From Bacteroidales bacterium (GTDB taxonomy: Bacteria; Bacteroidota; Bacteroidia; Bacteroidales; UBA12077): DNA of 64,000 nt. The stretch spans positions 10,277 to 74,276 of the forward strand of contig JANQHR010000117.1 of the NCBI GenBank assembly GCA_028282585.1. Reading direction: 5' to 3'. Below are positions 1,310 to 26,037 of this stretch, piece after piece; position 1 is the stretch's first letter, and each line of letters begins with the position of its first letter. Below the pieces are notes generated by a model. The model saw only the letters and a list, made by a program, of their open reading frames with translations, was not told the DNA's origin and did not search any database. A program made the translations under genes and the position numbers.

Positions 1310-2524
1310 CTAGCTAACTTCTTTAATATTGTAAACTAATAAAGCATTTCCGCGACGAACATATAAATTCCCGTTTTTAATTACAGGATGTGCAAAGTGT
1401 TCTTTTGTTCCCTTTTTAATTCTGAAAGAACTGATAACTTCTAAATTAGGTTCAGTTTTTATTAAATTAAGAGGCCCTTTTTCATTATACATATATAACA
1501 ATCCATCAGCGAAGATAGTACTTCCTCTTCCTACTTTTAATGAATCGATAATTTCTCCTGTTTCTTTGTCAACAGCTTTTAATAATTGCTTCCTATGACC
1601 GGTGCCTATAATTTTATTATTAGCAATTACAATTCCACCCATTATATTATCAAGATCAAAATTCCTCCAAATTTCAGTTATTTCACTACCATCTTCCGAA
1701 AGTTTTAGTTTTACGGTTCCATTTCCACAACCGGTTGTATAATATAGGTCTCCATTTTCGAATATTGGAGAATTACCGTGAATATCCCCCATGGTATCTT
1801 GATCGTGTACCCAAATCATCTCACCATTATCTGTGTTTAATGCGAATAAAGAGAATTCTGAGAATGTTACCAGTAGATTTCTTGTTGGATATTCAATAAT
1901 GATAGGAGAACAAAAGGCAGGTTTTTCGCCTTTAGCCTTGCTAACCCAAACTTCTTCACCAGTTAATCTGTTTAATGCAACCACATTATTATCTGTATTA
2001 CCTGGTGCAAAAAATACTTTATCTCCTTCAACTAGTAATGATTGAGAAAAACCAAATCTGGTATTAACACCTTGGTAGTCCTTAATCATATTTACGGACC
2101 ATACTTTACTTCCGTCTTTAGCATTAAAACATACTACTTCACCCATTGGTGAACATACATATACTAAATTATCCACCACCGTAGGTGCTGATCTGGAACC
2201 TGGAAAGTTCTTTACCCAGGAACTGTCATATTCCGATTCCCAAAGAAGGTTTCCTTCCAAATCGAAAGCGAATAAATGACTTAAACTATCTAGTTCGCCG
2301 CTAACAAATATTTTATCAGATGTAACGGTTGGCGATCCATAGCCGTTTCCAATTCCTTCATAGTCCCATAAAAGCTCTGGTCCGTCTTCAGGCCATTCTT
2401 TTAATAAGTTTGTTTCCGAATAGACGCCATCGCGCTTATCTCCTCGCCATTGGTTTATTTCAGTTTTCTTATTACATGAGTAAATAAAAAGTACGAGGAT
2501 AACAGGTAAAATTAAGTTTTTCAT
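1310..2524 (-). CDS. PQQ-like beta-propeller lipoprotein
   Basis: Lipobox-like LFIYSC; QWRGDKRDG..WPEDGPELLW N-terminus; repeated A.d..tG...W blades; C-terminal HFAHPVI..LYVR. Confidence 0.85.
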   Translation of the reverse strand: MKNLILPVILVLFIYSCNKKTEINQWRGDKRDGVYSETNLLKEWPEDGPELLWDYEGIGNGYGSPTVTSDKIFVSGELDSLSHLFAFDLEGNLLWESEYDSSWVKNFPGSRSAPTVVDNLVYVCSPMGEVVCFNAKDGSKVWSVNMIKDYQGVNTRFGFSQSLLVEGDKVFFAPGNTDNNVVALNRLTGEEVWVSKAKGEKPAFCSPIIIEYPTRNLLVTFSEFSLFALNTDNGEMIWVHDQDTMGDIHGNSPIFENGDLYYTTGCGNGTVKLKLSEDGSEITEIWRNFDLDNIMGGIVIANNKIIGTGHRKQLLKAVDKETGEIIDSLKVGRGSTIFADGLLYMYNEKGPLNLIKTEPNLEVISSFRIKKGTKEHFAHPVIKNGNLYVRRGNALLVYNIKEVS

Positions 2525-2602
2525 ATCATTAAAATTTATGGTTTCAGAAAATTCAAATATAAGATTATTTGAAACGAATATAGTTTAAATTATTGATTGA
2601 AA

Positions 2603-5600
2603 TTATTCGTTTCGCAAAGAAACTATCAAATTTGATTTAATTGAAAAACGAGTAGATAGGTAAATCCAAAGCAATCCACTTATTGTAATTATTAAAACTA
2701 ATGCTATTACATATAAACTGGGAATATTAAAAGATTCAGATAATAGTGAAGGTAAAATTCCAATAAGTGCGGCACCTATACCAATTTTTAAACCAATTAA
2801 TAGTAAAATAATATTTTCAATTACAATTAGCTTAATGATTTTAAGTTTTGAAAATCCAAGTGATAACAATAAAGCTATTTCAGATTTTCTTTCTAAAATG
2901 TTTCGAAGTAAAACTATACCTAAACCTATTGTACCAATTATAACCCCCAATCCTCCCAAAAACATAAAAACGGTAAGATATGTATTTGTAACGGAATAAA
3001 ACTGAGATAATCTTTCAGATGTTTGTGTCAGCTCAATACCATAATTCCTTAAATAAGAAGATAATATCTCAGAAGTTTTTTCTTTGCTTTTTGAGTCAAC
3101 AAGTATTGTTTTCGAACCACTGACTGAAGGAAAATGTTTGCTAAAATGTTTATCAGCAATTAAAATACTTCCCTGAAAAATTGAAGCTTGTAAACCTCCT
3201 GCTAATACAATGTAAAGCTCTTCTCCTTTTTCATTTAGATAAATTAACGTATCACCAACATTTTTCATTAATCCCCATGTAATTACTGTTTGATCAGCGT
3301 ATGCAGGGATTATATTTTTACCATAAGTTTTATTTAACTCTAACCAAGGTTCGATCTTATTTATATTATCTAATAGCCTGGCAAATGAAAAGGATTTTCT
3401 ATTATTTAATTCTTCAGGGTTTAGTCCCAGAATTTTGGGATTATTAATTTGATTCAGATTTAAACAACTGGCATCATCACCATCTAATTGATGTATTTGA
3501 ACAAAATTAACATGTTCTAATTCAGGTTCATCAGTTAAGTTATATTTGTTCTTACCTTCTTCAGAATTTAAGTCATTTAAAATAGGAAGAGTTGTTTCTG
3601 CCCAAAATTGGAATCCGCCTGTTCCGGATTCTCTTTTATTTTCAGATTCATAAAAGGTTTTTCTATTTGCTCCAGTAATAATGATTGTAAATGTGCCCAA
3701 CGATAATAAGGCTATAATTGCCAGACTTCTGCCTTTATTTTTAGCTGCATTTTTAAATGCAAGTTGATTAAAGCCTAAACTGTTACTATGCTTAAACTTA
3801 CTATTGTTGAATAATAGATTAAGCCATAAAATACTTCCAAGAAGGAACAAACTACTCACCGAAAGAATTAAGTTTGCATTTTGATCTAATGATGTTAAAA
3901 GTGAGTAAATCACAACTAAAGCAACAATCACATAACTTAAAATAGCCAGGATTTTATATAAGTGGTTTTCCCGGATATTTATCTTTTTTGAAATCATCGA
4001 ACCGTTTCTAATTAATCCAATAATTGGTTGCTGTAGTTTTTTTCTCGTAACAAGATATATTGATAACAGGGAAATTACAATTCCTGAGAAAGTTCCGATT
4101 AACAGGGTAGAATGCTTAATGTATATGCTTAACATATTGGTTCTTACTATATCTTGCCATACATTATTTAATGCATGCATTATTCCACGATTATAGAGTA
4201 TCCCGAAAAGAGCACCAATTATTCCACCTATCAGTACGGTTATAATATTTTCAATAAATCGGATTTTTATTATTTTCTTTTTATGAAACCCCAATCCGGA
4301 TAATATACCGGTTTCTGCATTTCTTGATTCTGTATTCAATGAGTAGATAAGAACAGTAAGCAAAATACCGGCAACTATAACAAAAAAGCTCATGCTTAGG
4401 AATAACTCACCAAAATCAACCCCGCTAGAAGCAGCTCTTATAGCTTCTGCTTGCACAGGTAAAAAGAATAAGTTAAGGTCTTTCGGATCCAGAACTGAAA
4501 TAATTCCTTTTTTAAGAGAATCCAGGTTTGAAATATTTTTATTGAGTCGAACCGAAGTATAATTTCCATATTTATTTTGCCAGAGTTCTAGTCCGGATTC
4601 AATTGTTATAAATGCTTTTGGAGTTCCTTTATATTCATCCCAGTATTTTTCATCTTTATCTCTTATTCTATCCAGATCTATTGGAATTCCTGTATCCCAT
4701 TCGCTACAGCTTCCAGCATCAGCTAGTCCGGGAAATAAAGGCATTAAATTTCTATCGAAAATTCCGCCTTGCGTTGGTAGAATATCTTTTACAATAAAAT
4801 TGTTTGTTTTTTCTTCAAGCGTCCTTAATGGACCAATAATATAATAATCTAATTCGAGTGTGTCACCCTTTTTTGCAACAATGTCGTCAGCTAACCATTG
4901 GTTAATTATTATTTCGTTTTTTGCCAGACTTCTATTCAAGTATTTCGATGAAGCTGCCGATACAAAAGAATATGGAGTTTCTCTATTATTTAATCTTAAA
5001 GAATTAACCAGGTAAGTTAAAATAGACTCATTTTCCTTGAAATTCTTATTGATTGATTCAGTTATTGGATTATCAATAAAGATACGATCAGAAAGTATTT
5101 CAAAATCATCTTCTAATTCCCGGATAAGCAAACCGGCATCTTTTAATTTCCATACTTTTTCAAAGGAATAGTTTATATCATCGCTCGTTAGATCATTGTT
5201 AAGGTTATTTGACGCAATTATTACGTTTGACAAACCTTCAACTTCAAGTTTTTTAGCAAGATAATCCCTGGAAATAAAAATATTATACGGTGCCGATTGA
5301 ATATTTTTTAATCCAAATCTGCCTAAATTCTGATCATTGGCAATTTCTTTAATTATAACTCTGAATGAAACAGAAGGATCCGATTCTTTAGCAAATGGGG
5401 CATTTAAAGGAATTACATTTGCGTTTTCAACTCTTAATAGAATCTCATCGTTAATCTTTAGATCTAATTTCTCTGCAACATTCTCACTAACAATAATTTC
5501 ATCATCATTTAGATCTGGTAAGGTTTTATTGGATAGCTGCCAAAAATTTTGATCAACTCCGTAGATTTGAGCCTTATTTATTCTAAGATTTGATTCGGAA

Positions 5601-5887
5601 TTAATTGCAATACAATTAAGATGAAGTAGGGGAGCGGTTTTAATTTTTAGATCATTCGAAATATCATTGGAGAGTTCAGATCTGACAAAGCGCTCGCCTG
5701 TTTGTAATGCAAATTTCGTGCTACCCAATCTGGCATCAACAATCTGACGTAAGCTAAATTTCACCGAATCACCTACAATTAATGCTCCTGTTAAAACAGC
5801 TGTACTTATTATAGTTCCTGCTAAAACCGCTAAATGCTGCTTTCTGAAATACCAAAAACTCCTTAATATAAATTTAAATATTGCCAT
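2603..5887 (-). CDS. ABC transporter permease, duplicated MacB/FtsX type
   Basis: 1094 aa; two repeats of TM + large periplasmic domain + 3 TM; ERKSEIALLLSLGF and SRNAETGILSGLGF FtsX-type motifs. Confidence 0.88.
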   Translation of the reverse strand: MAIFKFILRSFWYFRKQHLAVLAGTIISTAVLTGALIVGDSVKFSLRQIVDARLGSTKFALQTGERFVRSELSNDISNDLKIKTAPLLHLNCIAINSESNLRINKAQIYGVDQNFWQLSNKTLPDLNDDEIIVSENVAEKLDLKINDEILLRVENANVIPLNAPFAKESDPSVSFRVIIKEIANDQNLGRFGLKNIQSAPYNIFISRDYLAKKLEVEGLSNVIIASNNLNNDLTSDDINYSFEKVWKLKDAGLLIRELEDDFEILSDRIFIDNPITESINKNFKENESILTYLVNSLRLNNRETPYSFVSAASSKYLNRSLAKNEIIINQWLADDIVAKKGDTLELDYYIIGPLRTLEEKTNNFIVKDILPTQGGIFDRNLMPLFPGLADAGSCSEWDTGIPIDLDRIRDKDEKYWDEYKGTPKAFITIESGLELWQNKYGNYTSVRLNKNISNLDSLKKGIISVLDPKDLNLFFLPVQAEAIRAASSGVDFGELFLSMSFFVIVAGILLTVLIYSLNTESRNAETGILSGLGFHKKKIIKIRFIENIITVLIGGIIGALFGILYNRGIMHALNNVWQDIVRTNMLSIYIKHSTLLIGTFSGIVISLLSIYLVTRKKLQQPIIGLIRNGSMISKKINIRENHLYKILAILSYVIVALVVIYSLLTSLDQNANLILSVSSLFLLGSILWLNLLFNNSKFKHSNSLGFNQLAFKNAAKNKGRSLAIIALLSLGTFTIIITGANRKTFYESENKRESGTGGFQFWAETTLPILNDLNSEEGKNKYNLTDEPELEHVNFVQIHQLDGDDASCLNLNQINNPKILGLNPEELNNRKSFSFARLLDNINKIEPWLELNKTYGKNIIPAYADQTVITWGLMKNVGDTLIYLNEKGEELYIVLAGGLQASIFQGSILIADKHFSKHFPSVSGSKTILVDSKSKEKTSEILSSYLRNYGIELTQTSERLSQFYSVTNTYLTVFMFLGGLGVIIGTIGLGIVLLRNILERKSEIALLLSLGFSKLKIIKLIVIENIILLLIGLKIGIGAALIGILPSLLSESFNIPSLYVIALVLIITISGLLWIYLSTRFSIKSNLIVSLRNE

Positions 5888-5913: not shown

Positions 5914-6603
5914 TTAGTCATTAATTTTAGTAAGCTTTCCATAATCCAATTTATAGATTGAATCCATTTTTTTTGCCAGGTCCAGTGAGTGAGTTACAGC
6001 CACCATAGCAACATTTTGTTTTCTATTTATTTCAGATAATAATTCACCTAGTTGTTCTGCCGAATCCTGATCAAGAGAACCTGTTGGTTCGTCTGCTAAA
6101 ATGAGCTCGGGTTCATTTATAAGTGCTCTAACAACGGTTGCTCTTTGACACTCTCCGCCTGACATTTGTCCGGGTCGTTGATGAATTTTATCAGCTAAGC
6201 CAACGCTTTCAAGCAAACTCATAGCTCTATCTAATGCAATTTTCTTGTAGTTTTTATCAGAAATTGGAATTGTAGGAACTAATACATTCTCTATTAATGA
6301 TAACTGAGGTAATAAGTGATGAAGTTGAAAAATAAAACCAATATGTTGGTTTCTAATTTCAGCTAATTGTTTTTCAGAATATTGCTGAATATCATTTTCC
6401 TTAATTTTAACTATTCCGTTAGTTGGTTGATCAAGGGTTCCTAATATATTTAAGAGCGTACTTTTACCTGAACCTGAAGGTCCAACAATAGATATTGAAT
6501 CACCGGCTTTTAAGCTAAAATTAATTTCTTTTAGAACATCTCTACTGGCAATTACACCTTGATTCTCATAAGATTTACTTACATTTTCCAGTTCAACTAT
6601 CAT
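5914..6603 (-). CDS. ABC transporter ATP-binding protein, LolD/MacB-like
   Basis: Walker A GPSGSGKST, MSGGECQR, ILADEPTGSLD, VTH. Start taken at ATG 6603 (track start 6621). Confidence 0.93.
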   Translation of the reverse strand: MIVELENVSKSYENQGVIASRDVLKEINFSLKAGDSISIVGPSGSGKSTLLNILGTLDQPTNGIVKIKENDIQQYSEKQLAEIRNQHIGFIFQLHHLLPQLSLIENVLVPTIPISDKNYKKIALDRAMSLLESVGLADKIHQRPGQMSGGECQRATVVRALINEPELILADEPTGSLDQDSAEQLGELLSEINRKQNVAMVAVTHSLDLAKKMDSIYKLDYGKLTKIND

Positions 6604-6607
6604 AAGG

Positions 6608-7903
6608 TTATTTTTTATCAATTGCTTCCTGATAAATACTCAATATACTTTTAGTAACTTTTTCAGTACTGTATTTATCTTCAACTGATTTTCGTCCGTT
6701 CTTACTGTATTCAAGCAACTTATCTTTATCTCCCAATACTTCAGCCAATTTATTTGCTAATGCAGAAGAAGAATTAGGTTCAAAGATAGCACCACCTTGT
6801 GTTTCTTTGACAATTTCAGGGAAAGCTGCTAATGCAGGTTGTACAATTGGAACACCGGCAGCTAATGATTCTAATTGGTACATTCCAAACGCTTCACCTT
6901 TCAAAACAGGTACCGATAAAACGGTTAATTTATTAAAGAAATCACTTAATTTTTCGGTTCTGAAATCATCAATAAATTCGATATCATTCTCAATGCCGTT
7001 TTGTTCAAGCTTTTTAAGCTGTTTTTTTATGAATTTCTCATCATCACCTGTTTTACCGCCGGTAACCTTAAGCAAGGCGTTTTTAAACTCAGTTTTCTTC
7101 TTTAACTCAATAAATGCGTCAATAACTATTTCAAAGCCATTTTCTTTATTCATCCTTGATAAATAACCAACAACCGGTGGATCTTGAACAGGTTCTGTAT
7201 ATCTATAAGCATCAGGATCAACGCCTATTGGAACAACATGGAGTTTTTCGTCGGGAATAGACATTCTCTTTTGCATCAAGTTACCAAAGTATTGACTAAC
7301 TGCAATAAATGCATCAATGTCATTACTTTTCTCGCTCATTAATCCCCAAAGCTTAGTTTGGTAGTCTTTACTCATAGCATCAAGCCAAACATCTTCGTCT
7401 TGTAAAGAACATACAACCGGGATATTTAATTCTTCTCTTATCTTACTGGCTAATCCCATCAACAATGCATTAGATAAATGCACAACATCAGGTTTTTCAT
7501 GATTTTTCAAGAAATCTATTAAAAGATCAAGCTCTTCTTTTTGATAACCTTCAGCACCCTTTAACATAGATATTGTTAATTCTTCTAAACCCTCTGCCCT
7601 GGTCGATTCGGACATTTTTGAAGCAAAGCGAAGTATAGCTGGAGAATTAAAAAAGTTATGAAGCCATTTAGGCATTTTTCTTAGAAACTTGACTTTCTGT
7701 TCAAGATAAACATTTACTGCTCCATAAAATACAGGGATTCCGTCATTAGAATAATTATTGAATGCATTCAAAGGCATATATAATGGAAGCGTAATTGCAT
7801 CATGACCGGTTTTTTTTAACCATTTTGTAAAAGCACTGTCACGTAAGCAATTCCCACAATAGAATGTTCCGCCAAAACCAGGTACTATGTTAATTATTTT
7901 CAT
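6608..7903 (-). CDS. Glycosyltransferase family 4 (GT-B) with N-terminal CxxC
   Basis: EAFGMYQLESLAAGVP (ExFG-x3-E), PDVVHLSN, GYLSRM; N-terminal FYCGNCLRD. Confidence 0.88.
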   Translation of the reverse strand: MKIINIVPGFGGTFYCGNCLRDSAFTKWLKKTGHDAITLPLYMPLNAFNNYSNDGIPVFYGAVNVYLEQKVKFLRKMPKWLHNFFNSPAILRFASKMSESTRAEGLEELTISMLKGAEGYQKEELDLLIDFLKNHEKPDVVHLSNALLMGLASKIREELNIPVVCSLQDEDVWLDAMSKDYQTKLWGLMSEKSNDIDAFIAVSQYFGNLMQKRMSIPDEKLHVVPIGVDPDAYRYTEPVQDPPVVGYLSRMNKENGFEIVIDAFIELKKKTEFKNALLKVTGGKTGDDEKFIKKQLKKLEQNGIENDIEFIDDFRTEKLSDFFNKLTVLSVPVLKGEAFGMYQLESLAAGVPIVQPALAAFPEIVKETQGGAIFEPNSSSALANKLAEVLGDKDKLLEYSKNGRKSVEDKYSTEKVTKSILSIYQEAIDKK

Positions 7904-7929: not shown

Positions 7930-8034
7930 GAGATATTCAGTATCAAGATTTTAAAATTATCATTAAAATTAAATAATATCTAAATCTGTGTTTAGTGTCT
8001 AGTGTCTAGTGTCTTGATACTTGTATCTCGTATC
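7930..8034. repeat. Heptamer tandem repeat plus imperfect inverted repeat, intra-operon spacer
   Basis: TAGTGTC x3 then TTGATAC, TTGTATC, TCGTATC (7993-8034); GAGATATTCAGTATCAAGA (7930-7948) is near-complementary to TCTTGATACTTGTATCTC (8012-8029). Confidence 0.7.
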
Positions 8035-9143
8035 TATTTTACACCAAATGCGTACACTCTTCCATCACCAGCGCCAACAATAATCATATTATTAATAATT
8101 GCCGGAGTACTAATAACAGGACTTCCTATTTCGTACGACCAGATTTTTTTTCCACTGCTGATATCTAATATATAGAGATTACCATCATTTGATCCTATTA
8201 CAACTCTATTTCCTGTAATAACAGGTGAACTTTCAACTTTGTTTAAAGATTTAAATTTCCATAAAACTTTACCGGTTGTTTTATCAAAACAATACACATT
8301 TCTATCCTGTGATCCGATAATTACTTTATTTCCAGAAACTGCAGGTGAACCCAAGAAGGGACCGGCTCCGGTATATTTCCATTTGATAGTTTTACTTGTC
8401 ATATCTGCACAATAAAAACCACCATCGTAATTTCCAAAAAATGCCAGGTTATTTTCCAGAGCTGCTGATGATGCAATATATGTCCCAATGTCAATTTTAT
8501 CCTTTGAAATACCATCTGTAACACTAACCATATGCAGAAAACCATCACATCCGCCAAATACAGCAATATTACCATCAGTAGCAGGAGCTCCGTTAATATA
8601 ATTATCGGCTTCGTATTTCCAGGCAACTTTTCCGGTTTTTGCATCTACGCAATGCATAAAGAAATCATAACTTCCGGTAATAATTCTTTTAGTTTTTTTA
8701 TCAGAAGCATATACCCAACCGGCAGATCCGGAAATTTGACCATCTGTTGTATATTGCCATTTAACATCTCCTGTACCTGCATTCAAAGCAAATAGAATAC
8801 CTTCAAGTGAACCAAAATAGACTGTGTTATCTAAAAATAACGGGGGAGCTTCAATAGAAGTTCCGGCATTGAACTTCCAATTTAATTCTCCCTTAGAATT
8901 TAAAGAATATAAGTACCCATCATTTGATCCAATAAAAATGTTATTTCCACAAGTCACGGCAGATGATTTGATCAGATCTTCCGTTTTAAAGGTCCAGAGT
9001 AGTTTTAATGAATTTGGAATTTGAGCATCTGTTCTTCCTTGTAAAGATTGATTTCCTCTAAAAGTTGGCCAGCAGGTTGCTGTCTGAGAATTACCAAAAT
9101 AAGGAACAACTAATAATATTAGTAAGATCTTTAAATGTTTCAT
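8034..9143 (-). CDS. PQQ-like/BamB-like beta-propeller, secreted
   Basis: Signal peptide ending GNS-Q; WPTFRG; very regular SSP...v.iGs.DG.lY.l...tG...W blades. Start taken at ATG 9143. Confidence 0.85.
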   Translation of the reverse strand: MKHLKILLILLVVPYFGNSQTATCWPTFRGNQSLQGRTDAQIPNSLKLLWTFKTEDLIKSSAVTCGNNIFIGSNDGYLYSLNSKGELNWKFNAGTSIEAPPLFLDNTVYFGSLEGILFALNAGTGDVKWQYTTDGQISGSAGWVYASDKKTKRIITGSYDFFMHCVDAKTGKVAWKYEADNYINGAPATDGNIAVFGGCDGFLHMVSVTDGISKDKIDIGTYIASSAALENNLAFFGNYDGGFYCADMTSKTIKWKYTGAGPFLGSPAVSGNKVIIGSQDRNVYCFDKTTGKVLWKFKSLNKVESSPVITGNRVVIGSNDGNLYILDISSGKKIWSYEIGSPVISTPAIINNMIIVGAGDGRVYAFGVK

Positions 9144-9144
9144 T

Positions 9145-13039: not shown

Positions 13040-13068
13040 CTAATATATTCTTTTCTAATATATTCTTT
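13039..13068. repeat. 15-bp perfect tandem duplication at the nuoEF start
   Basis: TCTAATATATTCTTT at 13039-13053 and 13054-13068. Confidence 0.8.
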
Positions 13069-13129
13069 GCGACTCAGCGACTTATCTTATTTTCAATTTT
13101 AAACCGCAAAGATGTAAAGGCGCTAAGTT

Positions 13130-18287: not shown

Positions 18288-19715
18288 CTATTTCTTTCTT
18301 ATATCAAGGCAAACCATTGTTTTAGAATCCCTCAAAATCAGATATCCGTCTGCAATTGCTAATGGTCCCCACGCATCCACTCCATCAATTATTTTAGCCT
18401 TATCCAATAAGGTAAATTTAGTAGTACTTGCTTTAGCAATATTTAATGTTCCGTCGTCATTTAAAATAAAGAATTTGTCATCAGCAATAATATAAGGACC
18501 TAGACCATATCGATCTTCTTTCCCGCTGGTCCACAATATTGTTTGACAATCATTCGGATCACAACATACAAATTGATTACGCATTCCTGCTGCATCTTTT
18601 GGCAGGATTGAAAACATTCTGCCTTTATAATAAATTGGAGTTTGCTGTTCACTGGCAACACCATCCTTGGGCTTGTACTTTTGTAAAACTTCGACTGAAT
18701 ATTTTCCAGCATTTTCTTTAATTTGAAAAAGCATAGCACCTGCACCATAACCGGCAGTCATAAATATTCTTCCATTTTCAAGAACGAGTGGGGAAGGAGC
18801 AATAACCGTAGGTGAAAATTCAATGGTTTTCCATAAGATTTGTCCGGCATCATCCCCCTCGGCTGATACTCCACAAATACCTCCAAGAGCGGCATATACG
18901 TACATCTTTTTACCATTTAAAGTCATTGGCATTATGGATGAGTGTGACATTTTCCAGTTATCAGGATTTGGAGTTTCCCAAACTATTTCGCCCGTGGCAA
19001 GGTTAACAGCTATCATTAAAGATGAACCGCCAGGAGCAATAATTGCCAGATCCCCGTCAATCAAAGGACATTGACCAGTATACCAAAAAGGAACTTCAGT
19101 CATATATTCTTTTACAAGATCAATTCCCCATAACAAATCTCCATTATTTGGATCAGTACACATTACATGACAACGCGGACCAATTGTAACTAAATACTTA
19201 TCTGTAATTGCCGGAACCGTGCGAGACATTCCATGGTTTCTTTTAATGTTGATATTATAGGATCTGCGCCAGAGTTCTTCACCGGTTTCAAGCGAAAAAC
19301 AACGTAATGCATCGCGTTTTTTAAATTCATTATAATCAAGTATATATACTTTCCCATTGTAAATTACCGGAGCAGCATGACCTTCACCAAGTTCAACTCT
19401 CCATATTTCTTTTGGGGCATCTCCAAAATTGTCAATTAACGGAGTATTATCTTTTACAATATTGTCAAAATCAGCGCCACGAAAACGCGTCCATTTTCCC
19501 GTTAATAATGATGTTTGAGTACCATATTCATCAAAACGTTCCCCAATATTCACTATTTCTTCTAATTCAGCGCTTTTTTCCGGTCGGTTGTCCATTCCGG
19601 GAACGCTAGCTACAAGCTCTTTAACCGGATCTTTTGTAAACCACCACAAAAAGGACGAAACACTAATTAAAATAGTAATAAAAACTATAATCTTAACAAA
19701 CCCCAATTTTAACAT
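18288..19715 (-). CDS. Membrane-anchored PQQ-like beta-propeller
   Basis: N-terminal TM; WTRFRGADFDN; propeller blades; AWGPLAIADG. Confidence 0.85.
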   Translation of the reverse strand: MLKLGFVKIIVFITILISVSSFLWWFTKDPVKELVASVPGMDNRPEKSAELEEIVNIGERFDEYGTQTSLLTGKWTRFRGADFDNIVKDNTPLIDNFGDAPKEIWRVELGEGHAAPVIYNGKVYILDYNEFKKRDALRCFSLETGEELWRRSYNINIKRNHGMSRTVPAITDKYLVTIGPRCHVMCTDPNNGDLLWGIDLVKEYMTEVPFWYTGQCPLIDGDLAIIAPGGSSLMIAVNLATGEIVWETPNPDNWKMSHSSIMPMTLNGKKMYVYAALGGICGVSAEGDDAGQILWKTIEFSPTVIAPSPLVLENGRIFMTAGYGAGAMLFQIKENAGKYSVEVLQKYKPKDGVASEQQTPIYYKGRMFSILPKDAAGMRNQFVCCDPNDCQTILWTSGKEDRYGLGPYIIADDKFFILNDDGTLNIAKASTTKFTLLDKAKIIDGVDAWGPLAIADGYLILRDSKTMVCLDIRKK

Positions 19716-19765: not shown

Positions 19766-21004
19766 TTACTTTTTTTTAATATCAAAAGCCATTAAAGCAT
19801 CCATATGCCTGATATATAAAATACCATTATGAATAACAGGATGCGACCAATGCGGGCCGGTACCAAGTGGAATTTTGAAAGAACTTATTATGTCAAATTT
19901 TTCAGGATTTGCATTTACCAAAGCTAAAAAGCCGGTTTTTTCTTCATAGCAATATAGTTTTCCTTCTGCTGAAATAATTGATCCCTTTGTTTTCCATTTA
20001 GTTTCGTATTTCATTTCGCCTGTTTCCCAGTTGATACAACACCAGTTACCTTGCCCGTTATTGATCCAGTTGGAGCCATAAATGTGTCCATCAACTAACA
20101 CAACTCCGCCATGATGAACATCCAATACAGAATCTACCCACGCTAAAGATACAGACTCCCAATTTTCATTAAGGTTTAACTTAACGCTTTTATGATTATA
20201 ACCACTTGTAATATATAAACCGTTATTATGGTATAAAGGAGTATTTGTTTGATTCTTCCTTCTTTCTCCTGCATAGGATCTGATGTCAAATTTCCAAATA
20301 ATTTCACCTTTATCAGGAGTTACACCAATTATATAATTTGGAGTAACTGAAACAATTAGTCTTTTATTACCTTCTTCAATTAAAAGAGGTGATGAATAGG
20401 ATGGATTTTCTTTAATACTTTCAGAAGTCCAGATTGTTTCTCCGGTATTTTTATTTAAGGCAATCATATTTGTTTGATAACCACCCGTTGTATAAATAAG
20501 CTTATCATCAACAATTAACAAAGATTCGGCAATTCCCCACCTACCGATAGAACCTTGGTATTCTTCAATTGCTTTAATGGTCCAGATAATTTCACCAGTG
20601 ATTGCATTTATGCAAGCTATATCTCCTTGTCCACTTGAAACATAAGCTTTATCGTTTTCAACGGTAGGAGTTGATCTGCTATCCGGATAACCTTTTTCTC
20701 TGGCTCGTCCATATGGAGTTTGCCATTTTATTGTTCCATTAATATCAACTGCAATAAGAACATCTTTAGTATTGTCAATACCGGTAAAATATATAGTATT
20801 GTTTGCTACTGAAACGGATGAGTATCCTTTATAAAGATTTTCAACAGACCATAATAATTTAGGTCCGTTTTCAGGCCATTTATCTAATAGTCCGGTTTCG
20901 TTATAAACTCCTGTTCTTCCTGGCCCCCGCCATTGGGCAAAATCCTGTGCCGGAACAATTTGATATAAGCATATAGATACAAAAAAGAGCAATATTTTTT
21001 TCAT
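19766..21004 (-). CDS. PQQ-like beta-propeller, secreted
   Basis: Signal ending VPA-Q; QWRGPGRTG; DVHHGG; HWSHP. Confidence 0.85.
   Translation of the reverse strand: MKKILLFFVSICLYQIVPAQDFAQWRGPGRTGVYNETGLLDKWPENGPKLLWSVENLYKGYSSVSVANNTIYFTGIDNTKDVLIAVDINGTIKWQTPYGRAREKGYPDSRSTPTVENDKAYVSSGQGDIACINAITGEIIWTIKAIEEYQGSIGRWGIAESLLIVDDKLIYTTGGYQTNMIALNKNTGETIWTSESIKENPSYSSPLLIEEGNKRLIVSVTPNYIIGVTPDKGEIIWKFDIRSYAGERRKNQTNTPLYHNNGLYITSGYNHKSVKLNLNENWESVSLAWVDSVLDVHHGGVVLVDGHIYGSNWINNGQGNWCCINWETGEMKYETKWKTKGSIISAEGKLYCYEEKTGFLALVNANPEKFDIISSFKIPLGTGPHWSHPVIHNGILYIRHMDALMAFDIKKK
19881..19996. repeat. 116-bp near-identical segment, copy 1 (copy 2 at 21123-21238)
   Basis: Hand alignment: 109/116 identical, with a 53-bp perfect run. 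Confidence 0.9.
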
Positions 21005-21007
21005 AGA

Positions 21008-22282
21008 TTAATTCTTTTTAATGTTGTAAGCCATTAGGGCACCCATACGCCTAATGTATAAAATGCCGTCCTTAATTACCGGATGCGACCAGTTTGGTCC
21101 TTTACCCAACGGAATCTGGAATGAACTTATTATATCAAATTTCTCAGGATTTGCATTTACCAAAGCTAAAAAGCCGGTTTTTTCTTCATAGCAATACAAT
21201 TTCCCTTCTGCTGAAATAATTGATCCTTTCGTTTTCCAGGTTGTTGTATATTTAGTTTCACCTGTTTCCCAATCAATACAACACCAGTCACCCTTTCTGT
21301 TGTTGATCCAGTTTGATCCGTAAATATAACCATCAACTAATACGGTTGCTCCATGATGAACATCCAGTGTTTTATCGATCCATTTTATTTCAACTTTGGA
21401 AAGATCTTTAGCCAAATCGAACATAACGCCAACGTGATCATAACCACTTGTAACATATATATTGTAATCTTTGTAAATCGGACTGTTTGTATTTGTAAAC
21501 GGGCCACCATCCCAAAAAGCTACTGATACTTCATCACTAATAGAGGCATAATCTTTATGAAAAAGGATATCTCCATTTTTTGCATCTACTCCAATAAGAT
21601 TCGATGCTAAGACATTAATTATTACATTTTTATTATTGATCTTAGCTACGATTGGTGAAGCGTAACCAGGTTTATCATTTAATGTTTTGCTTTTCCAGAT
21701 TGTTTCTCCGGTGTTTTTATCCAGTGCTACCATTGTAGTTTTATCGCCACATGGTGTAAAAATAACTTTTTCGTTAACAATTAATGGAGATTCAGCAATT
21801 CCCCAGTTACCAAAATTGCCTTCGAATCTTCTGCTTGCATTAAATAACCAAATTTTTTCACCGGTTAATGCATTGAAACATCCAATATCTCCGGTTCCAC
21901 TAGTTACCCATACTTTATCACCTTCTACGGTTGGGGTGCAGCGGCTTGGAGGAAACGATTGCATCCACCCCTTACCAATTGGAGTCTCCCATTGTTTTTC
22001 ACCTTTCAAATCCAGTGCAAATAATACATCCATGGTATCCTTTAAACCAGTTGAATAAATTAAACCATTTGCAACAGATACAGAAGAATATCCTTCAGGT
22101 AATTCACTTACCGACCATAATAATTCTGGTCCTTCTTCAGGCCATTCTGTTAACAGACCTGTTTCATTGTAAATTCCATCTCTATTTTCACCGCGCCATT
22201 GGCTCTTTTCATTAAGTTTTTCAGAGTTAAGAGTTGTTGATAAAATAAGAGTTGATATAAAAAAAATGTTTAAAATATTCAT
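21008..22282 (-). CDS. PQQ-like beta-propeller, secreted
   Basis: QWRGENRDG; DVHHGA; GSNWINN; NWSHP. Confidence 0.85.
   Translation of the reverse strand: MNILNIFFISTLILSTTLNSEKLNEKSQWRGENRDGIYNETGLLTEWPEEGPELLWSVSELPEGYSSVSVANGLIYSTGLKDTMDVLFALDLKGEKQWETPIGKGWMQSFPPSRCTPTVEGDKVWVTSGTGDIGCFNALTGEKIWLFNASRRFEGNFGNWGIAESPLIVNEKVIFTPCGDKTTMVALDKNTGETIWKSKTLNDKPGYASPIVAKINNKNVIINVLASNLIGVDAKNGDILFHKDYASISDEVSVAFWDGGPFTNTNSPIYKDYNIYVTSGYDHVGVMFDLAKDLSKVEIKWIDKTLDVHHGATVLVDGYIYGSNWINNRKGDWCCIDWETGETKYTTTWKTKGSIISAEGKLYCYEEKTGFLALVNANPEKFDIISSFQIPLGKGPNWSHPVIKDGILYIRRMGALMAYNIKKN
21123..21238. repeat. 116-bp near-identical segment, copy 2
   Basis: Matches 19881-19996; the surrounding protein segment is identical over 40 aa in both paralogs. 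Confidence 0.9.
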
Positions 22283-22293
22283 AATATTTAGAT

Positions 22294-23553
22294 TTAGGTT
22301 TTCGATATATTATATGCCATTAGCGATTTTCCATGACGTACATATAAAATTCCATTGTGAATAACCGGATGCGACCAATGCGGACCTGTACCTTCGGTTA
22401 TCTTAAAAGAACTTACAACTTTAAATTCGTTCGGATTTGGTTCAACTAACGCAATATTTCCTTTTGCTTCATCATAACAATATAACATTCCATCTGCATA
22501 AATTATTGCCCCTTTTGTTTCCCATTCAATTTCATATTCTTTTTTACCTGTTTCCCAATCAATGCAACACCAATTTCCCTGACGATTATTTATCCAGTTG
22601 GATCCATATATTTTACCATCGATTGCCACAACACCGCCATGATGAGTATCTAAAATAGTATCGGTCCACATTAGTTCAATCCCAGAATTATCATTTAATA
22701 TGTTAAACATGGCACCAATATGGTTATATCCGCTTGTAACATATATTTGACCATTTTGATAAAGAGGAGTGTTGCAATTATTAATAGGAGCTAAGGGATG
22801 AGTTATATTTTTATAAAGATCATGGTAGTTGAACTTCCATAAAATATTACCATTTAAAATATCGATTCCAATTAAGTGTGTTGCAGTTACGTTGACAATA
22901 ATATCCTTTTGCCCATGATTGATTATAATAGGAGAAGCATAAGCGGTTGAGTCATTATTAGTTTCACTCTCCCAGATTTCTTTGCCAGTTTCTTTATCAA
23001 GAGCAACCATAGTAGTTCTTCTGCCTATAGCAGAAAAGATTACTTTGTTATTGTAAACCAATGGAGATTCGGCATTACCCCATACGTTTAATATAGCTTC
23101 GTATTTTTCAGAAAGGTTAGATTCCCAATTAATCTTACCCGTACTAGCATCTAGACAGGCAACATCACCTAATCCACTTGTAACATATAATTTACCATTA
23201 TCATATGTAGGTGTACATCTTGCTTCAGGATAAGAAGCATTCCAGGCGCGACCATATATTGTTCTCCATAGGATATTGCCTTTTAAGTCAATAGCAATAA
23301 CTTCATCTAAAGAGTCCACCGTTCCCGTGAGATAAATTGCGTTATCAGCAATTGACATAGATGAATTACCCATGCTAAGCAAATCTGTTGACCATAATAG
23401 TTCCGGGCCATCAGCAGGCCATTTTTTTAATAGATTAGTTTCATCATAAATTCCATCTCTATTATTTCCTCTCCATTGAGTTATATCGCTAACAGAATCC
23501 TTGCACTGAATAAATGCAAGGCTAATCGCTATTAATAAAATAAGTTTTCTCAT
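22294..23553 (-). CDS. PQQ-like beta-propeller lipoprotein
   Basis: Start taken at ATG 23553 (MRKLILLIAISLAFIQC, lipobox-like); QWRGNNRDG; DTHHGG; HWSHP. Confidence 0.85.
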   Translation of the reverse strand: MRKLILLIAISLAFIQCKDSVSDITQWRGNNRDGIYDETNLLKKWPADGPELLWSTDLLSMGNSSMSIADNAIYLTGTVDSLDEVIAIDLKGNILWRTIYGRAWNASYPEARCTPTYDNGKLYVTSGLGDVACLDASTGKINWESNLSEKYEAILNVWGNAESPLVYNNKVIFSAIGRRTTMVALDKETGKEIWESETNNDSTAYASPIIINHGQKDIIVNVTATHLIGIDILNGNILWKFNYHDLYKNITHPLAPINNCNTPLYQNGQIYVTSGYNHIGAMFNILNDNSGIELMWTDTILDTHHGGVVAIDGKIYGSNWINNRQGNWCCIDWETGKKEYEIEWETKGAIIYADGMLYCYDEAKGNIALVEPNPNEFKVVSSFKITEGTGPHWSHPVIHNGILYVRHGKSLMAYNISKT

Positions 23554-23578
23554 GGTTGATGATCGATTTAATTTAAAA

Positions 23579-24808
23579 TTAACTTGCTGCAATATCGTAA
23601 ACTAATAAGCTATTTGCATAACGTATATAAAGTTTTTTATCTTTTATTACCGGGTGTGCAATATGATCTTTCTTTTTGCCAGGTGCTTTGAAAGTGCTAA
23701 TAACCTCAAAACTGTTTTCAGTAGGTTTTACCAAATGAACTTCACCGGAATATGAGTAAGCATAGATCAATCCTTCTGCAGAAATAATAGAAGCAGGACC
23801 AATCAGTTCTGAAGAATCTTTTACAGCACCGGTTTTCCAGTCAACTACAGAAAAAACCTTTTTATCCCAAGATCCACCGTAAATATTATTTCCAATTTTA
23901 AGGACATCACCATGTTCTAAGTCGAATAAATCGCTTCGCCAGACTTCTTCTATAGAGTTACCATCTTCTGAAATCTCCATCATTACACTTCCAAACCCCC
24001 ATCCATTCATTGCGAAGATGTATCCATTATCATAGATAGGGACATTAGCATGAATACCATGTGGATATTTTAAATCATGACTCCAAATTAGTTTTCCGGA
24101 TTCAGGTTCAAGAGCAAGAATAGATTTGGCAGTCATTGTAACAAATAGTTTTCTACCATTATGATTAATTATTGTTGGTGATGCATATGCGCTAATTTCA
24201 TGAACACCCTTACTTTTCCATACTAACTCGCCCGAAAAACGATCCAATGCTAAAATATTATTTTCGATTGTATCACCTGGAGTGCAATAAACAATATTGT
24301 CATCAATCAAAAGATTTTCGCAGAATCCAAAATATGGGGTAACTGCATTATACTCCTCGATCCAATCCTTTTCCCATATTATATCGCCGTTGTCTGTATC
24401 AAAACAAACCATTTTGCCATAATCGGAAATAAGATATCCTAACCCGTCTCTGATTATAGGAGTGGTTCTAACGCCGGGATAAGGTTTTTGCCATGATTTA
24501 CCAAATGGTTTTTTCCACAACAAATTTCCATCCAGATCCAAAGCAAAAACGTATGCAGTACTATCTGCAGTTCCTGTAATATATACCTTTTTAGAAGTTA
24601 CAGCTGCAGTAGTGTAGCCATTACCGAGTCCTTCATATTTCCATAAAAGTTCGGGGCCATTTTCTGGCCATTCGTTTAATAGCCCGGTTTCCGGATAAAA
24701 ACCAGTTCTTTCTGGGCCACGCCATTCGCTTATTTCAGATTCTGTTACAGTACATTGATAAATTACTGGTATTAAGATTAGTAAAAACAAATAAAATTTA
24801 GGTTTCAT
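23579..24808 (-). CDS. PQQ-like beta-propeller, probable lipoprotein
   Basis: VIYQC lipobox-like; EWRGPERTG; GIHANVP; HIAHP. Confidence 0.85.
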   Translation of the reverse strand: MKPKFYLFLLILIPVIYQCTVTESEISEWRGPERTGFYPETGLLNEWPENGPELLWKYEGLGNGYTTAAVTSKKVYITGTADSTAYVFALDLDGNLLWKKPFGKSWQKPYPGVRTTPIIRDGLGYLISDYGKMVCFDTDNGDIIWEKDWIEEYNAVTPYFGFCENLLIDDNIVYCTPGDTIENNILALDRFSGELVWKSKGVHEISAYASPTIINHNGRKLFVTMTAKSILALEPESGKLIWSHDLKYPHGIHANVPIYDNGYIFAMNGWGFGSVMMEISEDGNSIEEVWRSDLFDLEHGDVLKIGNNIYGGSWDKKVFSVVDWKTGAVKDSSELIGPASIISAEGLIYAYSYSGEVHLVKPTENSFEVISTFKAPGKKKDHIAHPVIKDKKLYIRYANSLLVYDIAAS

Positions 24809-24825
24809 ATTTATTTAGGGATTGG

Positions 24826-26037
24826 TTATTCTCCGATATTGTATACCATTAGTGATCCGCCATGACGTACGTATAATCTCTTATTATTAATAACTAAATG
24901 TGCCCAGTGTTGTGCCTGACCATATGGTACCCTGAATTTACCTTTAATTTCGAATTTGTTTTCCTTTGGTTCAACCAAAGCAATTTCTCCACCTTCGCTA
25001 TAACAGTACAATAAGCCATCAGAATAAATAATATTTCCGCTTTTAAAAATATTAGCTGAATATAAAGTCCGGCCTGTTTTCCAATCAATACAATGCCAGG
25101 TATTTCCACGATCTACTGATCCATATAACCTGCCATTAACTAAAACAAATCCGCCACTTTTGTGGTTAATATCCGCATTTCTCCAAAGCTCTGTTACACT
25201 TCTGCCATCAGCGGATAGTTTTAACATTACACCTCCTTTACCATAACCGCTAACTATGTAAATCTGTCCGTCATGATAAATTGGAGTATTAGCATGAACT
25301 GCGTACCTGTTCGTTTGAGTATGCTTCCAAAGAAGTTCTCCGTTATTAACGTCAATTCCAAGAATATAATTAGTTGTTTGTGTTACAAAAATATATTTAT
25401 CGTTATGCTTTATTACAGTAGGAGAGCAATAAGCACTAGCTTCCGATTCTCCCTGAGTTGTCCATATCAATTTACCATCATCTTTGTTTAAAGCAATAAC
25501 ATTATGTTCAACTCCACCAACAGTGCAGAATAGTTTATCTTCGTGAATGACAAGATTTTCGGTTATGCCCCATTTTATATTAACTCCACCATATTTATTC
25601 ATTACATCAACGGTCCATATTATATCGCCTGTATTCTTATTCATACAGTATATAATACCATAAGCACTCATTATATATATTTTTCCATCAGAAATTAATG
25701 GAGTTGTACGAACGCCATCCCAGCTTTCTACCCATTCTCTTCCATAAACCGATTTCCAGATTAATTTGCCATTGTGGTCCAGGGCAACAACAAATCCTTC
25801 ACCATCAATTGTACCTGACGTATAAACTATATTTGAAGTAACTGCAGCAGATGCATGTCCAACACCTAATTCATCGAAATGCCACAAAAGTTCAGGACCG
25901 CCCGAAGGCCATTCTTTTAATAAATTGGTTTCCTGATAAATCCCATCACGGTTTTCGCCACGCCATTGCGCCGTCTCTTGAGAAAAAATTGGGTTTGTAA
26001 AGAATAAAATCGCAATTAGCAAATAAAAATTTTTCAT
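24826..26037 (-). CDS. PQQ-like beta-propeller, secreted; first gene of the operon
   Basis: Signal ending IFS-Q; QWRGENRDG; AVHANTP; HWAHL; AAGGAGGA upstream. Confidence 0.85.
   Translation of the reverse strand: MKNFYLLIAILFFTNPIFSQETAQWRGENRDGIYQETNLLKEWPSGGPELLWHFDELGVGHASAAVTSNIVYTSGTIDGEGFVVALDHNGKLIWKSVYGREWVESWDGVRTTPLISDGKIYIMSAYGIIYCMNKNTGDIIWTVDVMNKYGGVNIKWGITENLVIHEDKLFCTVGGVEHNVIALNKDDGKLIWTTQGESEASAYCSPTVIKHNDKYIFVTQTTNYILGIDVNNGELLWKHTQTNRYAVHANTPIYHDGQIYIVSGYGKGGVMLKLSADGRSVTELWRNADINHKSGGFVLVNGRLYGSVDRGNTWHCIDWKTGRTLYSANIFKSGNIIYSDGLLYCYSEGGEIALVEPKENKFEIKGKFRVPYGQAQHWAHLVINNKRLYVRHGGSLMVYNIGE

Follow-up and report, generated by a model that had tools for sequence, protein, structure and literature searches.

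A cluster of 18 genes lies at positions 1310 to 26037 of a 64,000-nt stretch of DNA from a Bacteroidales bacterium (contig JANQHR010000117.1 of assembly GCA_028282585.1). The whole stretch, of ~32% GC, is referred to here as the window. The cluster was first noticed in a reading made from the letters of the window without database searches, called here the sequence-only reading. In the open reading frame (ORF) list of the window all 18 ORFs are on the minus strand, running from 26037 down to 1310. At 13 of the 17 junctions neighbouring ORFs overlap or are separated by 50 bp or less, which confirms the co-oriented and mostly tight arrangement first described. The four wider junctions are P6tm/NHL (92 bp), P7tm/NuoEF (242 bp), P8/GT4 (130 bp) and FtsX/P9 (78 bp); the gene products are named in Table 1.

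By Pfam, the cluster encodes nine PQQ_2 propellers and one NHL/SBBP propeller, Fer4 and Fer4_5 proteins, a fusion of NuoE and NuoF, a protein with Fer2_4, Fer4_20 and Pyr_redox_2 domains, a family 4 glycosyltransferase (GT4), an ATP-binding cassette (ABC) ATPase and an FtsX permease. The parts list of the sequence-only reading (propellers, NapH-like protein, NuoEF, GltD-like protein, GT4 and ABC pair) was thus right. Two of the encoded proteins, the 69-aa Cys4 ORF and the ferredoxin, carry twin-arginine motifs. Hydrogenase, formate dehydrogenase, molybdopterin and cytochrome domains are absent from the 18 proteins in the Pfam search, and no CxxCH motif occurs in them; the claim that the cluster has no hydrogenase, formate dehydrogenase, Mo or cytochrome gene therefore holds.

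The host genome (4.9 Mb, 98.35% complete) encodes TatC, two RnfD/NqrB-type genes and seven matches to the [FeFe]-hydrogenase large subunit. The NHL, ferredoxin, NapH-like, Cys4, GT4 and FtsX genes of the cluster are single-copy in it. No match to pqqC was found in this 98.35%-complete genome, a weak negative since control genomes were equally silent.

Rfam (gathering threshold) and tRNA scans of the window gave no matches. The longest non-coding gap within the cluster is the one between P7tm and NuoEF (13040-13281), which has no Rfam match and may be the site of an internal promoter or regulatory element. Neither a sigma-70 promoter scan (80 vs 82.6 in shuffles) nor a terminator scan (11 vs 8.6 in shuffles) rose above shuffled sequence, and both scans are poorly suited to the phylum. 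The motif TAnnTTTG, which we take to be the Bacteroidota -7 promoter motif, occurs at two places only, upstream of P1 (at 185 nt) and of P9 (at 29 nt), and is a weak sign.

Table 1. Gene products of the cluster in order of transcription, with window positions, strand and basis of assignment
Gene product	Positions	Strand	Basis
P1, soluble 8-bladed BamB/PQQ_2-type propeller with N-terminal signal peptide, first gene	24826-26037	-	PQQ_2 95.2 bits
P2, soluble propeller paralogue, lipoprotein-like N-terminus	23579-24808	-	PQQ_2 74.5 bits; 41-44% identity to P1 and P9
P3, soluble propeller paralogue, W-C-C motif	22294-23592	-	PQQ_2 104 bits; CC at residue 342
P4, soluble propeller paralogue, W-C-C motif	21008-22282	-	PQQ_2 69.7 bits; CC at residue 334; 50-56% identity to P3 and P5
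P5, soluble propeller paralogue, W-C-C motif	19766-21004	-	PQQ_2 69.7 bits; CC at residue 322
P6tm, membrane-anchored 8-bladed propeller, single copy, highly conserved core	18288-19715	-	PQQ_2 68.8 bits; N-terminal hydrophobic helix
NHL-CC, membrane-anchored 6-bladed NHL propeller, G-C-C-N-P	17233-18195	-	Pfam NHL/SBBP; AF2 model
Cys4 mini-protein, 69 aa, twin-arginine, C-x5-C-x2-C-x6-C	17020-17229	-	ORF list; 40-sequence alignment
Tat polyferredoxin, probably anchor-retained, NapG-like design	16433-17017	-	Fer4 families; four CxxCxxC...C(P) groups
NapH-like integral membrane Fe-S protein	15126-16412	-	Fer4_5 56.1 bits, two stretches, and Fer4
P7tm, propeller with three-helix N-terminal membrane domain and acidic linker, core	13282-15129	-	PQQ_2 108 bits; three hydrophobic segments
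NuoEF, BfuC-BfuB fusion (NuoE and HydB-type NuoF)	10691-13039	-	2Fe-2S_thioredx, Complex1_51K, NADH_4Fe-4S, Fer4_21
BfuA-like (GltD-like) Fe-S/flavin-domain protein	9145-10689	-	Fer2_4, Fer4_20, Pyr_redox_2
P8, secreted propeller, Beta-prop_ACSF4 type	8034-9173	-	Beta-prop_ACSF4 224.1 bits (cut-off 133); PQQ_2 132.5 bits
GT4 glycosyltransferase subfamily, N-terminal G..FYC.NC (CxxC)	6608-7903	-	Glycos_transf_1, Glyco_transf_4
LolD/MacB/FtsE-type ABC ATPase	5914-6621	-	ABC_tran; LolD model 248.8 bits vs cut-off 307.75
Duplicated FtsX-type permease, 1094 aa, large extracytoplasmic loops	2603-5887	-	FtsX, two stretches
P9, soluble propeller paralogue, lipoprotein-like N-terminus, last gene	1310-2524	-	PQQ_2 80.1 bits; 44% identity to P2

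A single conserved unit in many genomes

Related loci were collected in two sets. The genome loci are the best 80 of at least 565 NHL-encoding stretches found with an NHL profile in species-representative genomes, and the metagenome loci are 80 loci of 38-67% GC from a scan with distant NHL relatives (33-43% identical). Neighbours were counted from ORF and BLAST matches among loci with enough flank, and the counts are lower bounds. By name, 79 of the best 80 genome loci are of Bacteroidota type and one belongs to a 'Chlorobiota' metagenome-assembled genome. Cultured carriers are Marinifilum flexuosum DSM 21950, M. fragile JCM 15579, M. caeruleilacunae JC070 and Labilibaculum filiforme 59.16B.

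The order kept in the genome loci is soluble propeller(s), P6tm, NHL, (Cys4), ferredoxin, NapH-like, P7tm, NuoEF, GltD-like, P8 and GT4/ABC. The NHL gene is accompanied by P6tm, directly upstream of it, in 74/76 loci, by the ferredoxin gene in 68/70, the NapH-like gene in 65/67, NuoEF in 51/54 and the GltD-like gene in 45/50. P7tm is found after the NapH-like gene in 60/62 genome loci and 28/30 metagenome loci. In most loci an orthologue of P1 is upstream of the core and P8 comes after the GltD-like gene. Two loci without runs of N (L041, L057) are true exceptions.

The core recurs in the metagenome loci, with ferredoxin in 43/48, the NapH-like gene in 36/38, NuoEF in 22/27 and the GltD-like gene in 19/25, and extends to loci of 45-67% GC in which the NHL protein is no more than 31-49% identical. 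Those distant NHL relatives that carry names are from Verrucomicrobiota/Limisphaerales and Lentisphaerota. In four loci (L138, L143, L149, L152; partly also in L137) the genes P8-GT4-ABC-FtsX are placed ahead of P6tm-NHL and not behind the GltD-like gene. Retention of the same gene set after rearrangement argues for function rather than inherited order.

Co-occurrence was counted in 301 genomes of the window's order. Related genomes are not independent, and the counts are therefore descriptive and do not amount to a statistical test. The NHL gene is found in 50 of the 301 genomes, about one in six, and in 42 of 208 genera; the two other genomes from the window's own genus do not have it. An orthologue of the ferredoxin is present in 56 genomes (50/50 NHL-positive, 6/251 NHL-negative), one of the FtsX permease in 55 (49/50 and 6/251, respectively) and one of GT4 in 50 (46/50 and 4/251). 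Six NHL-negative genomes (G416, G506, G644, G665, G671, G674) each have two or three of ferredoxin, FtsX and GT4, and two others (G547, G657) have weak ferredoxin-type matches alone. The parts are found together even if unlinked, on different contigs in G425 and G593 and 274 kb apart in G630. An even, phylum-wide sample of 400 other genomes contained no NHL gene, which is read as a patchy, lineage-restricted distribution and not as absence.

The arrangement, which recurs in at least 80 + 80 loci, is far beyond chance. The neighbourhood check had been set in advance, and it shows that the redox genes and the propeller, GT4 and ABC genes co-occur in other genomes, as the sequence-only reading had supposed. 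Thus the cluster is a single conserved unit, real and widespread.

The genes flanking this unit are not conserved. Among 76 upstream neighbours of the Bacteroidota-type genome loci no family has more than five members, and ten flanking genes in GC-rich loci are unrelated housekeeping or mobile genes. The cluster is thus self-contained. The gene just upstream of the core encodes a PMT_2-type (ArnT-like) glycosyltransferase in one GC-rich locus (L090:6368-8314) and a sulfatase in another (L118:7714-9357), and neither recurs.

Directly upstream of the cluster in the window (26284-28647, minus strand) an L-histidine N-alpha-methyltransferase (EgtD equivalog, 367.9 bits vs cut-off 290.9) adjoins a protein with three rhodanese domains. 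The two are presumably an anaerobic ergothioneine pair of the EanA/EanB type. Of the other loci only L002, the closest relative, has this pair. Further away, an ordinary arginine/pyrimidine locus (31171-35963, plus strand) consists of an arginine repressor gene followed by those for the small and large chains of carbamoyl-phosphate synthase, and it marks the region near 30 kb in which strand and GC skew change over.

Proteins of the redox core, the propellers and the ABC pair

The NuoF part of the NuoEF fusion (residues 177-779) aligns with residues 2-581 of the 584 of 9bov_B at E 5e-202, and it matches the NfnB chain 9n5u_B, 8oh5_B and bifurcating HydB chains equally well (E about 1e-200). 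Given this full-length alignment, the extra N-terminal 2Fe-2S domain and the C-terminal 2x[4Fe-4S] domain are present; Fer4_21 is found at residues 732-780 of the fusion. These are the two features which, according to passages of PMC9304861, separate bifurcating Bfu cores from ordinary NuoF homologues. The NuoE part scores 177.4 bits with 2Fe-2S_thioredx in two stretches and matches NuoE models at E 1e-36 to 1e-42. The sites predicted for NuoEF are an NADH/flavin mononucleotide (FMN) site, two 2Fe-2S clusters, an N3-type 4Fe-4S cluster and the C-terminal 2x[4Fe-4S] pair. Most orthologues have a length of ~780 aa, and thus the fusion of NuoE with NuoF is typical for the cluster. By these comparisons NuoEF is a Bfu-type (HydBC-like) core, as the sequence-only reading had recognised from the letters, and it would be expected to couple the turnover of NAD(H), ferredoxin and a third substrate.

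Its GltD-like partner, here called BfuA-like, aligns with 9bov_A and 8oh5_C (each of ~1175 aa; E about 1e-93) over their residues 4-287 and 453-672 only. 8oh5 is, we assume, the Stn complex of Sporomusa ovata. The BfuA-like protein derives from the Nfn-Bfu (StnC-like) subunit, and the two share the 2Fe-2S, 2x4Fe-4S, FAD-domain and C-terminal cluster regions. The ~165-residue NADP(H)-binding domain (288-452 of 9bov_A/8oh5_C) and the C-terminal formate-dehydrogenase-like domain are both missing. The orthologues are equally short, with 64 of 68 complete ORFs at 582 aa or less. The likeness to GltD was correctly seen, but without the NADP(H) domain the protein cannot act as an Nfn/Stn transhydrogenase. 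It is proposed to be an Fe-S, perhaps also flavin, adaptor in which the lost catalytic domain would have been replaced by the membrane module.

The host genome has at least six further NuoF/HydB-type paralogues, which together with the seven hydrogenase matches are on contigs C108, C111, C120 and C92, outside the window. The set on C108 consists of NuoE, NuoF and a full-length GltD-like gene and resembles a genuine Nfn-Bfu (51% and 38% identity to the module of the cluster). It is likely to represent the evolutionary source of the cluster's NADH module.

The NapH-like membrane protein has about seven hydrophobic segments, and its two CX3CP and two CxxCxxCxxxCP motifs are conserved in 69 sequences. 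The second CxxCxxCxxxCP follows additional hydrophobic segments. Fer4_5 matches in two stretches (cut-off 22, score in Table 1). No solved structural relative of this protein was found, and Pfam reveals no nap, mau or nos catalytic partner among the 18 genes.

The ferredoxin carries a twin-arginine pair and 16 Cys in four groups, all invariant in 36 sequences, which fits four [4Fe-4S] clusters. No NapG-type model in NCBIfam matches it at E 0.001 or better, and no solved homologue was found beyond single Fer4 domains. In some genomes the ferredoxin matches contain apparent stops. These are at match edges and not at Cys positions, so that they are no sign of selenocysteine.

The Cys4 mini-protein has no family match in NCBIfam. 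Its twin-arginine pair and four Cys are invariant in a 40-sequence alignment that extends from Bacteroidota to GC-rich loci, and a strict pattern detects it in 48/80 genome loci and 46/80 metagenome loci. In ten loci (L046, L053, L061, L064, L067, L068, L069, L072, L077, L079) the Cys4 sequence forms the N-terminus of the ferredoxin, and in L116 it is fused N-terminally to the NHL protein, so that through these fusions all three proteins are physically linked. Cys4 is therefore proposed, from the alignment and the fusions, as an additional metal or Fe-S site that may bridge ferredoxin and NHL. A predicted complex of ferredoxin (40-194), Cys4 (30-69), NHL (36-320) and four 4Fe-4S clusters scored 0.01 against a mark of 0.32 and had no controls; it was used neither way.

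NHL-CC scores 22.9 bits with the Pfam family NHL (cut-off 20) and 24.8 bits with SBBP (cut-off 20.5). Its AlphaFold2 (AF2) model is six-bladed, with a predicted local distance difference test score (pLDDT) of 89.4. The top Foldseek matches are the NHL domains of Thin, TRIM2 and TRIM3 (probability 1.00, target TM-score 0.76-0.82). Its sole cysteines are the two neighbouring residues of G-C-C-N-P. This vicinal pair is invariant across phyla and, along with a T-x-E-K-G..R-x-K segment, down to 33% identity. The anchor is one helix in Bacteroidota, and many distant relatives have a twin-arginine motif of their own. The ESM Atlas holds look-alike NHL clusters from other phyla, which come without gene context. 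A 4276-aa multi-propeller relative (P0143) has 13 stretches that match the NHL-CC profile, the best at 356 bits.

Smaller combinations of NHL-CC, ferredoxin-like and NapH-like genes are found outside the large cluster. In G547, which does not have the large cluster, a DUF4369-NHL protein with F-x-G-C-C-N-P is followed by ferredoxin-like and NapH-like genes in two places (L165, G547:C4:1-18000; L166, G547:C1:606000-625000). One of these triads is flanked by a SusC-type TonB receptor (STN and Plug domains), SusD, an extracytoplasmic function (ECF) sigma factor and FecR. The other has a FIST histidine kinase and a FecR protein beside it, and a phosphonate-type binding-protein gene between its NHL and ferredoxin genes. 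In G657 (L167, G657:C78), likewise without the large cluster, ferredoxin-like and NapH-like genes precede a shorter, lipoprotein-like NHL-CC gene. In the window's genome all six DUF4369 ORFs have a thioredoxin-fold AhpC-TSA/Thioredoxin_8 domain. Thus in DUF4369-NHL the NHL-CC propeller takes the place that a thiol:disulfide oxidoreductase domain has in a common Bacteroidota architecture. The triads show NHL-CC, Tat ferredoxin and NapH-like protein as a reusable module, and since they have no NuoEF nearby the Bfu module is one of several possible donors.

PQQ_2 is above its Pfam cut-off in all nine of the remaining propellers. P1 has motifs that are conserved across 60 orthologues, and by sequence it matches BamB (E 9e-12), tetrathionate hydrolase (8e-9) and a quinoprotein alcohol dehydrogenase (2e-8). 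The AF2 model of P6tm (pLDDT 91.4) has BamB, tetrathionate hydrolase and pyrroloquinoline quinone (PQQ) alcohol dehydrogenase as top Foldseek matches. With the BamB equivalog TIGR03300 the propellers reach 26-145 bits against a cut-off of 285.2. With the PQQ-dehydrogenase model TIGR03075 they reach 24-87 bits against 480, and matches to PF01011 span one or two repeats of its 595-position profile. Judged by these scores the likeness to BamB and to PQQ enzymes is at the level of the fold only. The 'PQQ-like' label of the sequence-only reading can be kept for the fold and not for membership in the PQQ-dehydrogenase family. Soluble paralogues number about one to seven per genome locus, with none in a few loci. 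This variation suggests diversification in the binding or processing of substrates. Three of the soluble propellers have lipoprotein-like N-termini.

GT4 belongs to the GT-B fold, with a Glyco_transf_4 N-domain and a Glycos_transf_1 C-domain, at 86.7 and 52.1 bits, both above cut-off. Its N-terminal CxxC motif occurs in 26 of 27 orthologue ORFs. GT4 equivalogs (BshA, MshA, EpsE and others) all score far below their cut-offs. The permease matches FtsX at 58 bits in two stretches and MacB_PCD at 22.9 bits against a cut-off of 27. Against MacB chains it aligns at E 3e-5 over the last 140 residues only, and there are weak ADOP matches. Permeases of the MacB/LolCDE/FtsEX type act mechanically on periplasmic partners and carry no cargo across the inner membrane. 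That GT4 and the FtsX-type ABC pair are part of the system is clear; they would most likely serve in its assembly or maintenance, or in handling its substrate at the envelope, and not as a classical exporter. None of the results supports the earlier suggestion that GT4 glycosylates, and the ABC pair exports, the substrate of the redox chain.

A candidate electron path from NADH to the periplasm

The reading preferred here, with a probability of about 0.55, is that the 18 genes encode a machine linking the NADH/ferredoxin pool to a membrane-anchored propeller complex in the periplasm through Fe-S clusters alone, with a thiol-redox NHL end. The Bfu core would oxidise NADH and, like other Bfu enzymes, probably reduced ferredoxin along with it, and the truncated BfuA-like protein would hand the electrons to the cytoplasmic clusters of the NapH-like protein. 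On the outer face they may pass to the Tat polyferredoxin, then to the Cys4 site and then to the NHL Cys pair. This pair would cycle between disulfide and dithiol as an Fe-S-driven centre, in the way of ferredoxin:thioredoxin reductase or heterodisulfide reductase. It would reduce a periplasmic substrate held, presented or processed by the anchored and soluble propellers, which are taken to be cofactor-less and similar to BamB or tetrathionate hydrolase. The system could thus be an alternative sink for NADH and ferredoxin electrons in an H2-producing fermenter. The seven hydrogenase matches and the Rnf/Nqr-type genes of the host make an additional sink of this kind physiologically sensible. 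As to the class of substrate, an oxidant of the disulfide/polysulfide type, or another that thiols can reduce, is the best guess; this is the weakest step.

Several observations speak against this scheme. Electron transfer across the membrane, its direction and its substrate are inferred, and for NapH-type proteins, NapH itself included, the way in which electrons cross the membrane has yet to be established. With the NapH and MauN models of NCBIfam the NapH-like protein scores 56.1-56.4 bits, far under the cut-offs of 213 and 234. The 'GD' motif of the FAD site reads 'GS' in the BfuA-like protein, which makes flavin binding uncertain. Fold searches with NHL-CC and P6tm return scaffolds only (TRIM NHL, BamB) and no catalytic analogue, and the vicinal Cys pair of NHL could instead be a metal-binding site. 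The rhodanese gene beside the cluster had been considered as a clue to sulfur chemistry. It was dropped because its neighbour scores as an EgtD equivalog; the gene is better explained by the ergothioneine pair, and that clue is gone.

The place of NADH as donor is also weakened by the distant loci. In five metagenome loci (L115, L118, L120, L126, L151) NuoEF does not follow the core genes. In L151 the NuoEF/GltD genes are upstream on the opposite strand, and in L118, L120 and L126 NHL-Fd-NapH-P7tm occurs without NuoEF/GltD anywhere in the locus. From these loci and from the G547/G657 triads, NADH is not an obligatory donor, and quinol is possible.

The conduit could alternatively serve for maintenance or activation. 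It would do no more than hold the propeller enzymes, or their cysteines, in a reduced and active state, and the propellers would themselves carry out a non-redox hydrolysis or lysis of an envelope or dietary polymer. NosR/NosGH is thought to maintain N2O reductase in this manner, and MauMN is needed for methylamine dehydrogenase. The NapH family takes in NosR, NosH and MauN (NCBIfam names), P1 and P6tm have cofactor-less tetrathionate hydrolase as one of their closest relatives of solved structure, and an NHL-CC/Fd/NapH triad is found in SusC/SusD and ECF sigma/anti-sigma surroundings that are typical for nutrient uptake. However, a dedicated Bfu NADH module with at least ten clusters is a heavy investment for occasional repair, and the invariant partner of the ferredoxin is NHL-CC and not the variable propellers. 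A role of this kind is regarded as unlikely.

Slightly less probable again is a flow in the reverse direction, whereby a periplasmic donor of low potential is oxidised by the propeller complex, and its electrons are bifurcated by the Bfu core to NAD+ and ferredoxin, with energy conserved as in H2 uptake by HydABC. It is difficult to name a donor of about -400 mV that cofactor-less propellers and a Cys pair could oxidise. The periplasmic parts showed no site for PQQ, heme, Mo or flavin, and a fermenter with seven hydrogenase matches needs sinks and not sources. Nonetheless, Bfu enzymes are reversible, and the donor whose electrons they bifurcate is as a rule their third substrate (passages of PMC9304861). 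NapH-like systems also serve both reductases and oxidases, one of which is the PQQ alcohol dehydrogenase ExaA, a propeller (as described in part of PMC8238504).

A role in envelope biogenesis should also be considered, although it is less probable than either of the foregoing. The BamB-like propellers, GT4 and the MacB/LolCDE-like ABC pair would build or remodel a layer of glycoconjugates or lipoproteins at the surface, for which the redox module would supply the reductant of one modification step or act as a redox sensor. BamB comes first among the structural matches of P6tm and among the sequence matches of P1, the co-occurrence of the core with GT4 and the FtsX permease is tight, the ATPase is LolD-like and lipoprotein-like N-termini are present on three soluble propellers. 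Yet BamB models reach only 70-145 bits against a cut-off of 285, and the minimal set of the distant loci is NHL-Fd-NapH-P7tm, with GT4/ABC absent from the 20 kb locus in many.

A chance juxtaposition of two or three unrelated operons (propellers; redox; GT4/ABC), for which the 242-bp and 130-bp gaps could house internal promoters, is highly improbable in view of synteny over two superphyla, a gene set that survives rearrangement and near-perfect co-occurrence even of unlinked parts.

The linkage of the NADH/ferredoxin pool to a periplasmic thiol-redox NHL end thus remains the preferred reading. A more far-reaching form of it is rather doubtful: the cluster would hold the first Bfu bifurcating/confurcating enzyme with an extracytoplasmic third substrate, and the NHL vicinal Cys together with cofactor-less propellers would be a new class of periplasmic catalyst that reduces disulfide/polysulfide-type or other thiol-reducible compounds. 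In that case an unrecognised fermentative route of electron disposal would exist in Bacteroidota and PVC (Planctomycetota-Verrucomicrobiota-Chlamydiota) bacteria of anoxic habitats. In sediments and elsewhere without oxygen, anaerobic members of Bacteroidota and Verrucomicrobiota/Lentisphaerota play a major part in polymer degradation, and how these groups balance NADH and ferredoxin other than by producing H2 is understood only in part. The output end has no known redox cofactor apart from Fe-S clusters and cysteines. If the preferred reading is true, bifurcation/confurcation extends to periplasmic substrates, and the cluster may be an unknown way for anaerobes to rid the cell of electrons. 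NHL-CC, the Cys4 Tat mini-protein and the new Tat polyferredoxin would be three new protein families, and part of the pool of propellers annotated as 'PQQ-like/BamB-like' in these phyla would have a function. Since cultured carriers exist, the question is directly testable.

Comparison with known systems

A full-text literature search found no published description of the cluster and no characterised pathway of such composition, in agreement with the sequence-only reading; the supplementary lists of PMC9304861 (Nfn-type BfuB in 'Bacteroidetes', clade 53) and of PMC8238504 might carry the module.

NapGH, NosGH and MauMN are alike in that the gene for a Tat-signal ferredoxin with four cluster motifs adjoins that for a membrane protein with two Fer4_5/CX3CP and two 4Fe-4S motifs. 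NosZ and the heavy chain of methylamine dehydrogenase are themselves propellers served by NosGH/MauMN-type pairs. The cluster differs from these systems in scores below their cut-offs, in the extra hydrophobic segments ahead of the second Fe-S motif of its membrane protein, in the lack of a Nap, Nos or Mau catalytic gene and in a presumed Bfu donor in place of quinol.

Nfn-Bfu/StnABC (8oh5, 9bov, 9n5u; PMC9304861) has in common with the cluster a full-length BfuB with all accessory Fe-S domains and the shared BfuA regions. In the cluster, however, BfuC and BfuB are fused, BfuA is without the NADP(H) and formate-dehydrogenase-like domains, and the presumptive third substrate would be reached through a membrane protein. 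PMC9304861 describes many Bfu clades whose third substrates are unknown, with membrane-bound Mbh and Nuo forms predicted, and a NapH-linked form is not noted in the passages concerned.

In the NapH-like/ApbE-flavinylated systems, as described in part of PMC8238504, a NapH-like protein likewise connects electron pools in a modular way to periplasmic reductases and oxidases. By Pfam the cluster has neither an FMN-binding domain nor ApbE, and its carrier is an all-Fe-S polyferredoxin with Cys4. A NuoF-type donor is reported in those parts of PMC8238504 for MsrQ-like systems only (31 clusters) and not for NapH-like ones.

The likeness to ferredoxin:thioredoxin reductase (FTR) and heterodisulfide reductase is one of analogy only, namely an Fe-S cluster by a Cys pair that lets one-electron carriers reduce a disulfide. 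No CCG or FTR motifs were seen in the cluster, and its site would be borne by an NHL propeller in the periplasm. BamB, tetrathionate hydrolase and the PQQ alcohol dehydrogenases share the 8-bladed fold of P1 and P6tm; the propellers of the cluster have ~400 aa, whereas the quinoproteins have ~600 aa. Type VII ABC systems (MacB, LolCDE, FtsEX, YbbAP) resemble the cluster in a LolD-like ATPase and an FtsX-domain permease with a possible MacB-type periplasmic core (MacB_PCD below cut-off). They differ from it in that the permease of the cluster is a single duplicated protein, all equivalog cut-offs are missed and no gene for a membrane-fusion or outer-membrane partner is present in the cluster.

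Thus the backbone of the cluster joins two well-studied kinds of system that are not known to have been reported together, a NapGH-like conduit and a Bfu enzyme, and what is new is the donor (Bfu) and the acceptor module (NHL-CC, Cys4, propellers). The terminal chemistry could be categorically new.

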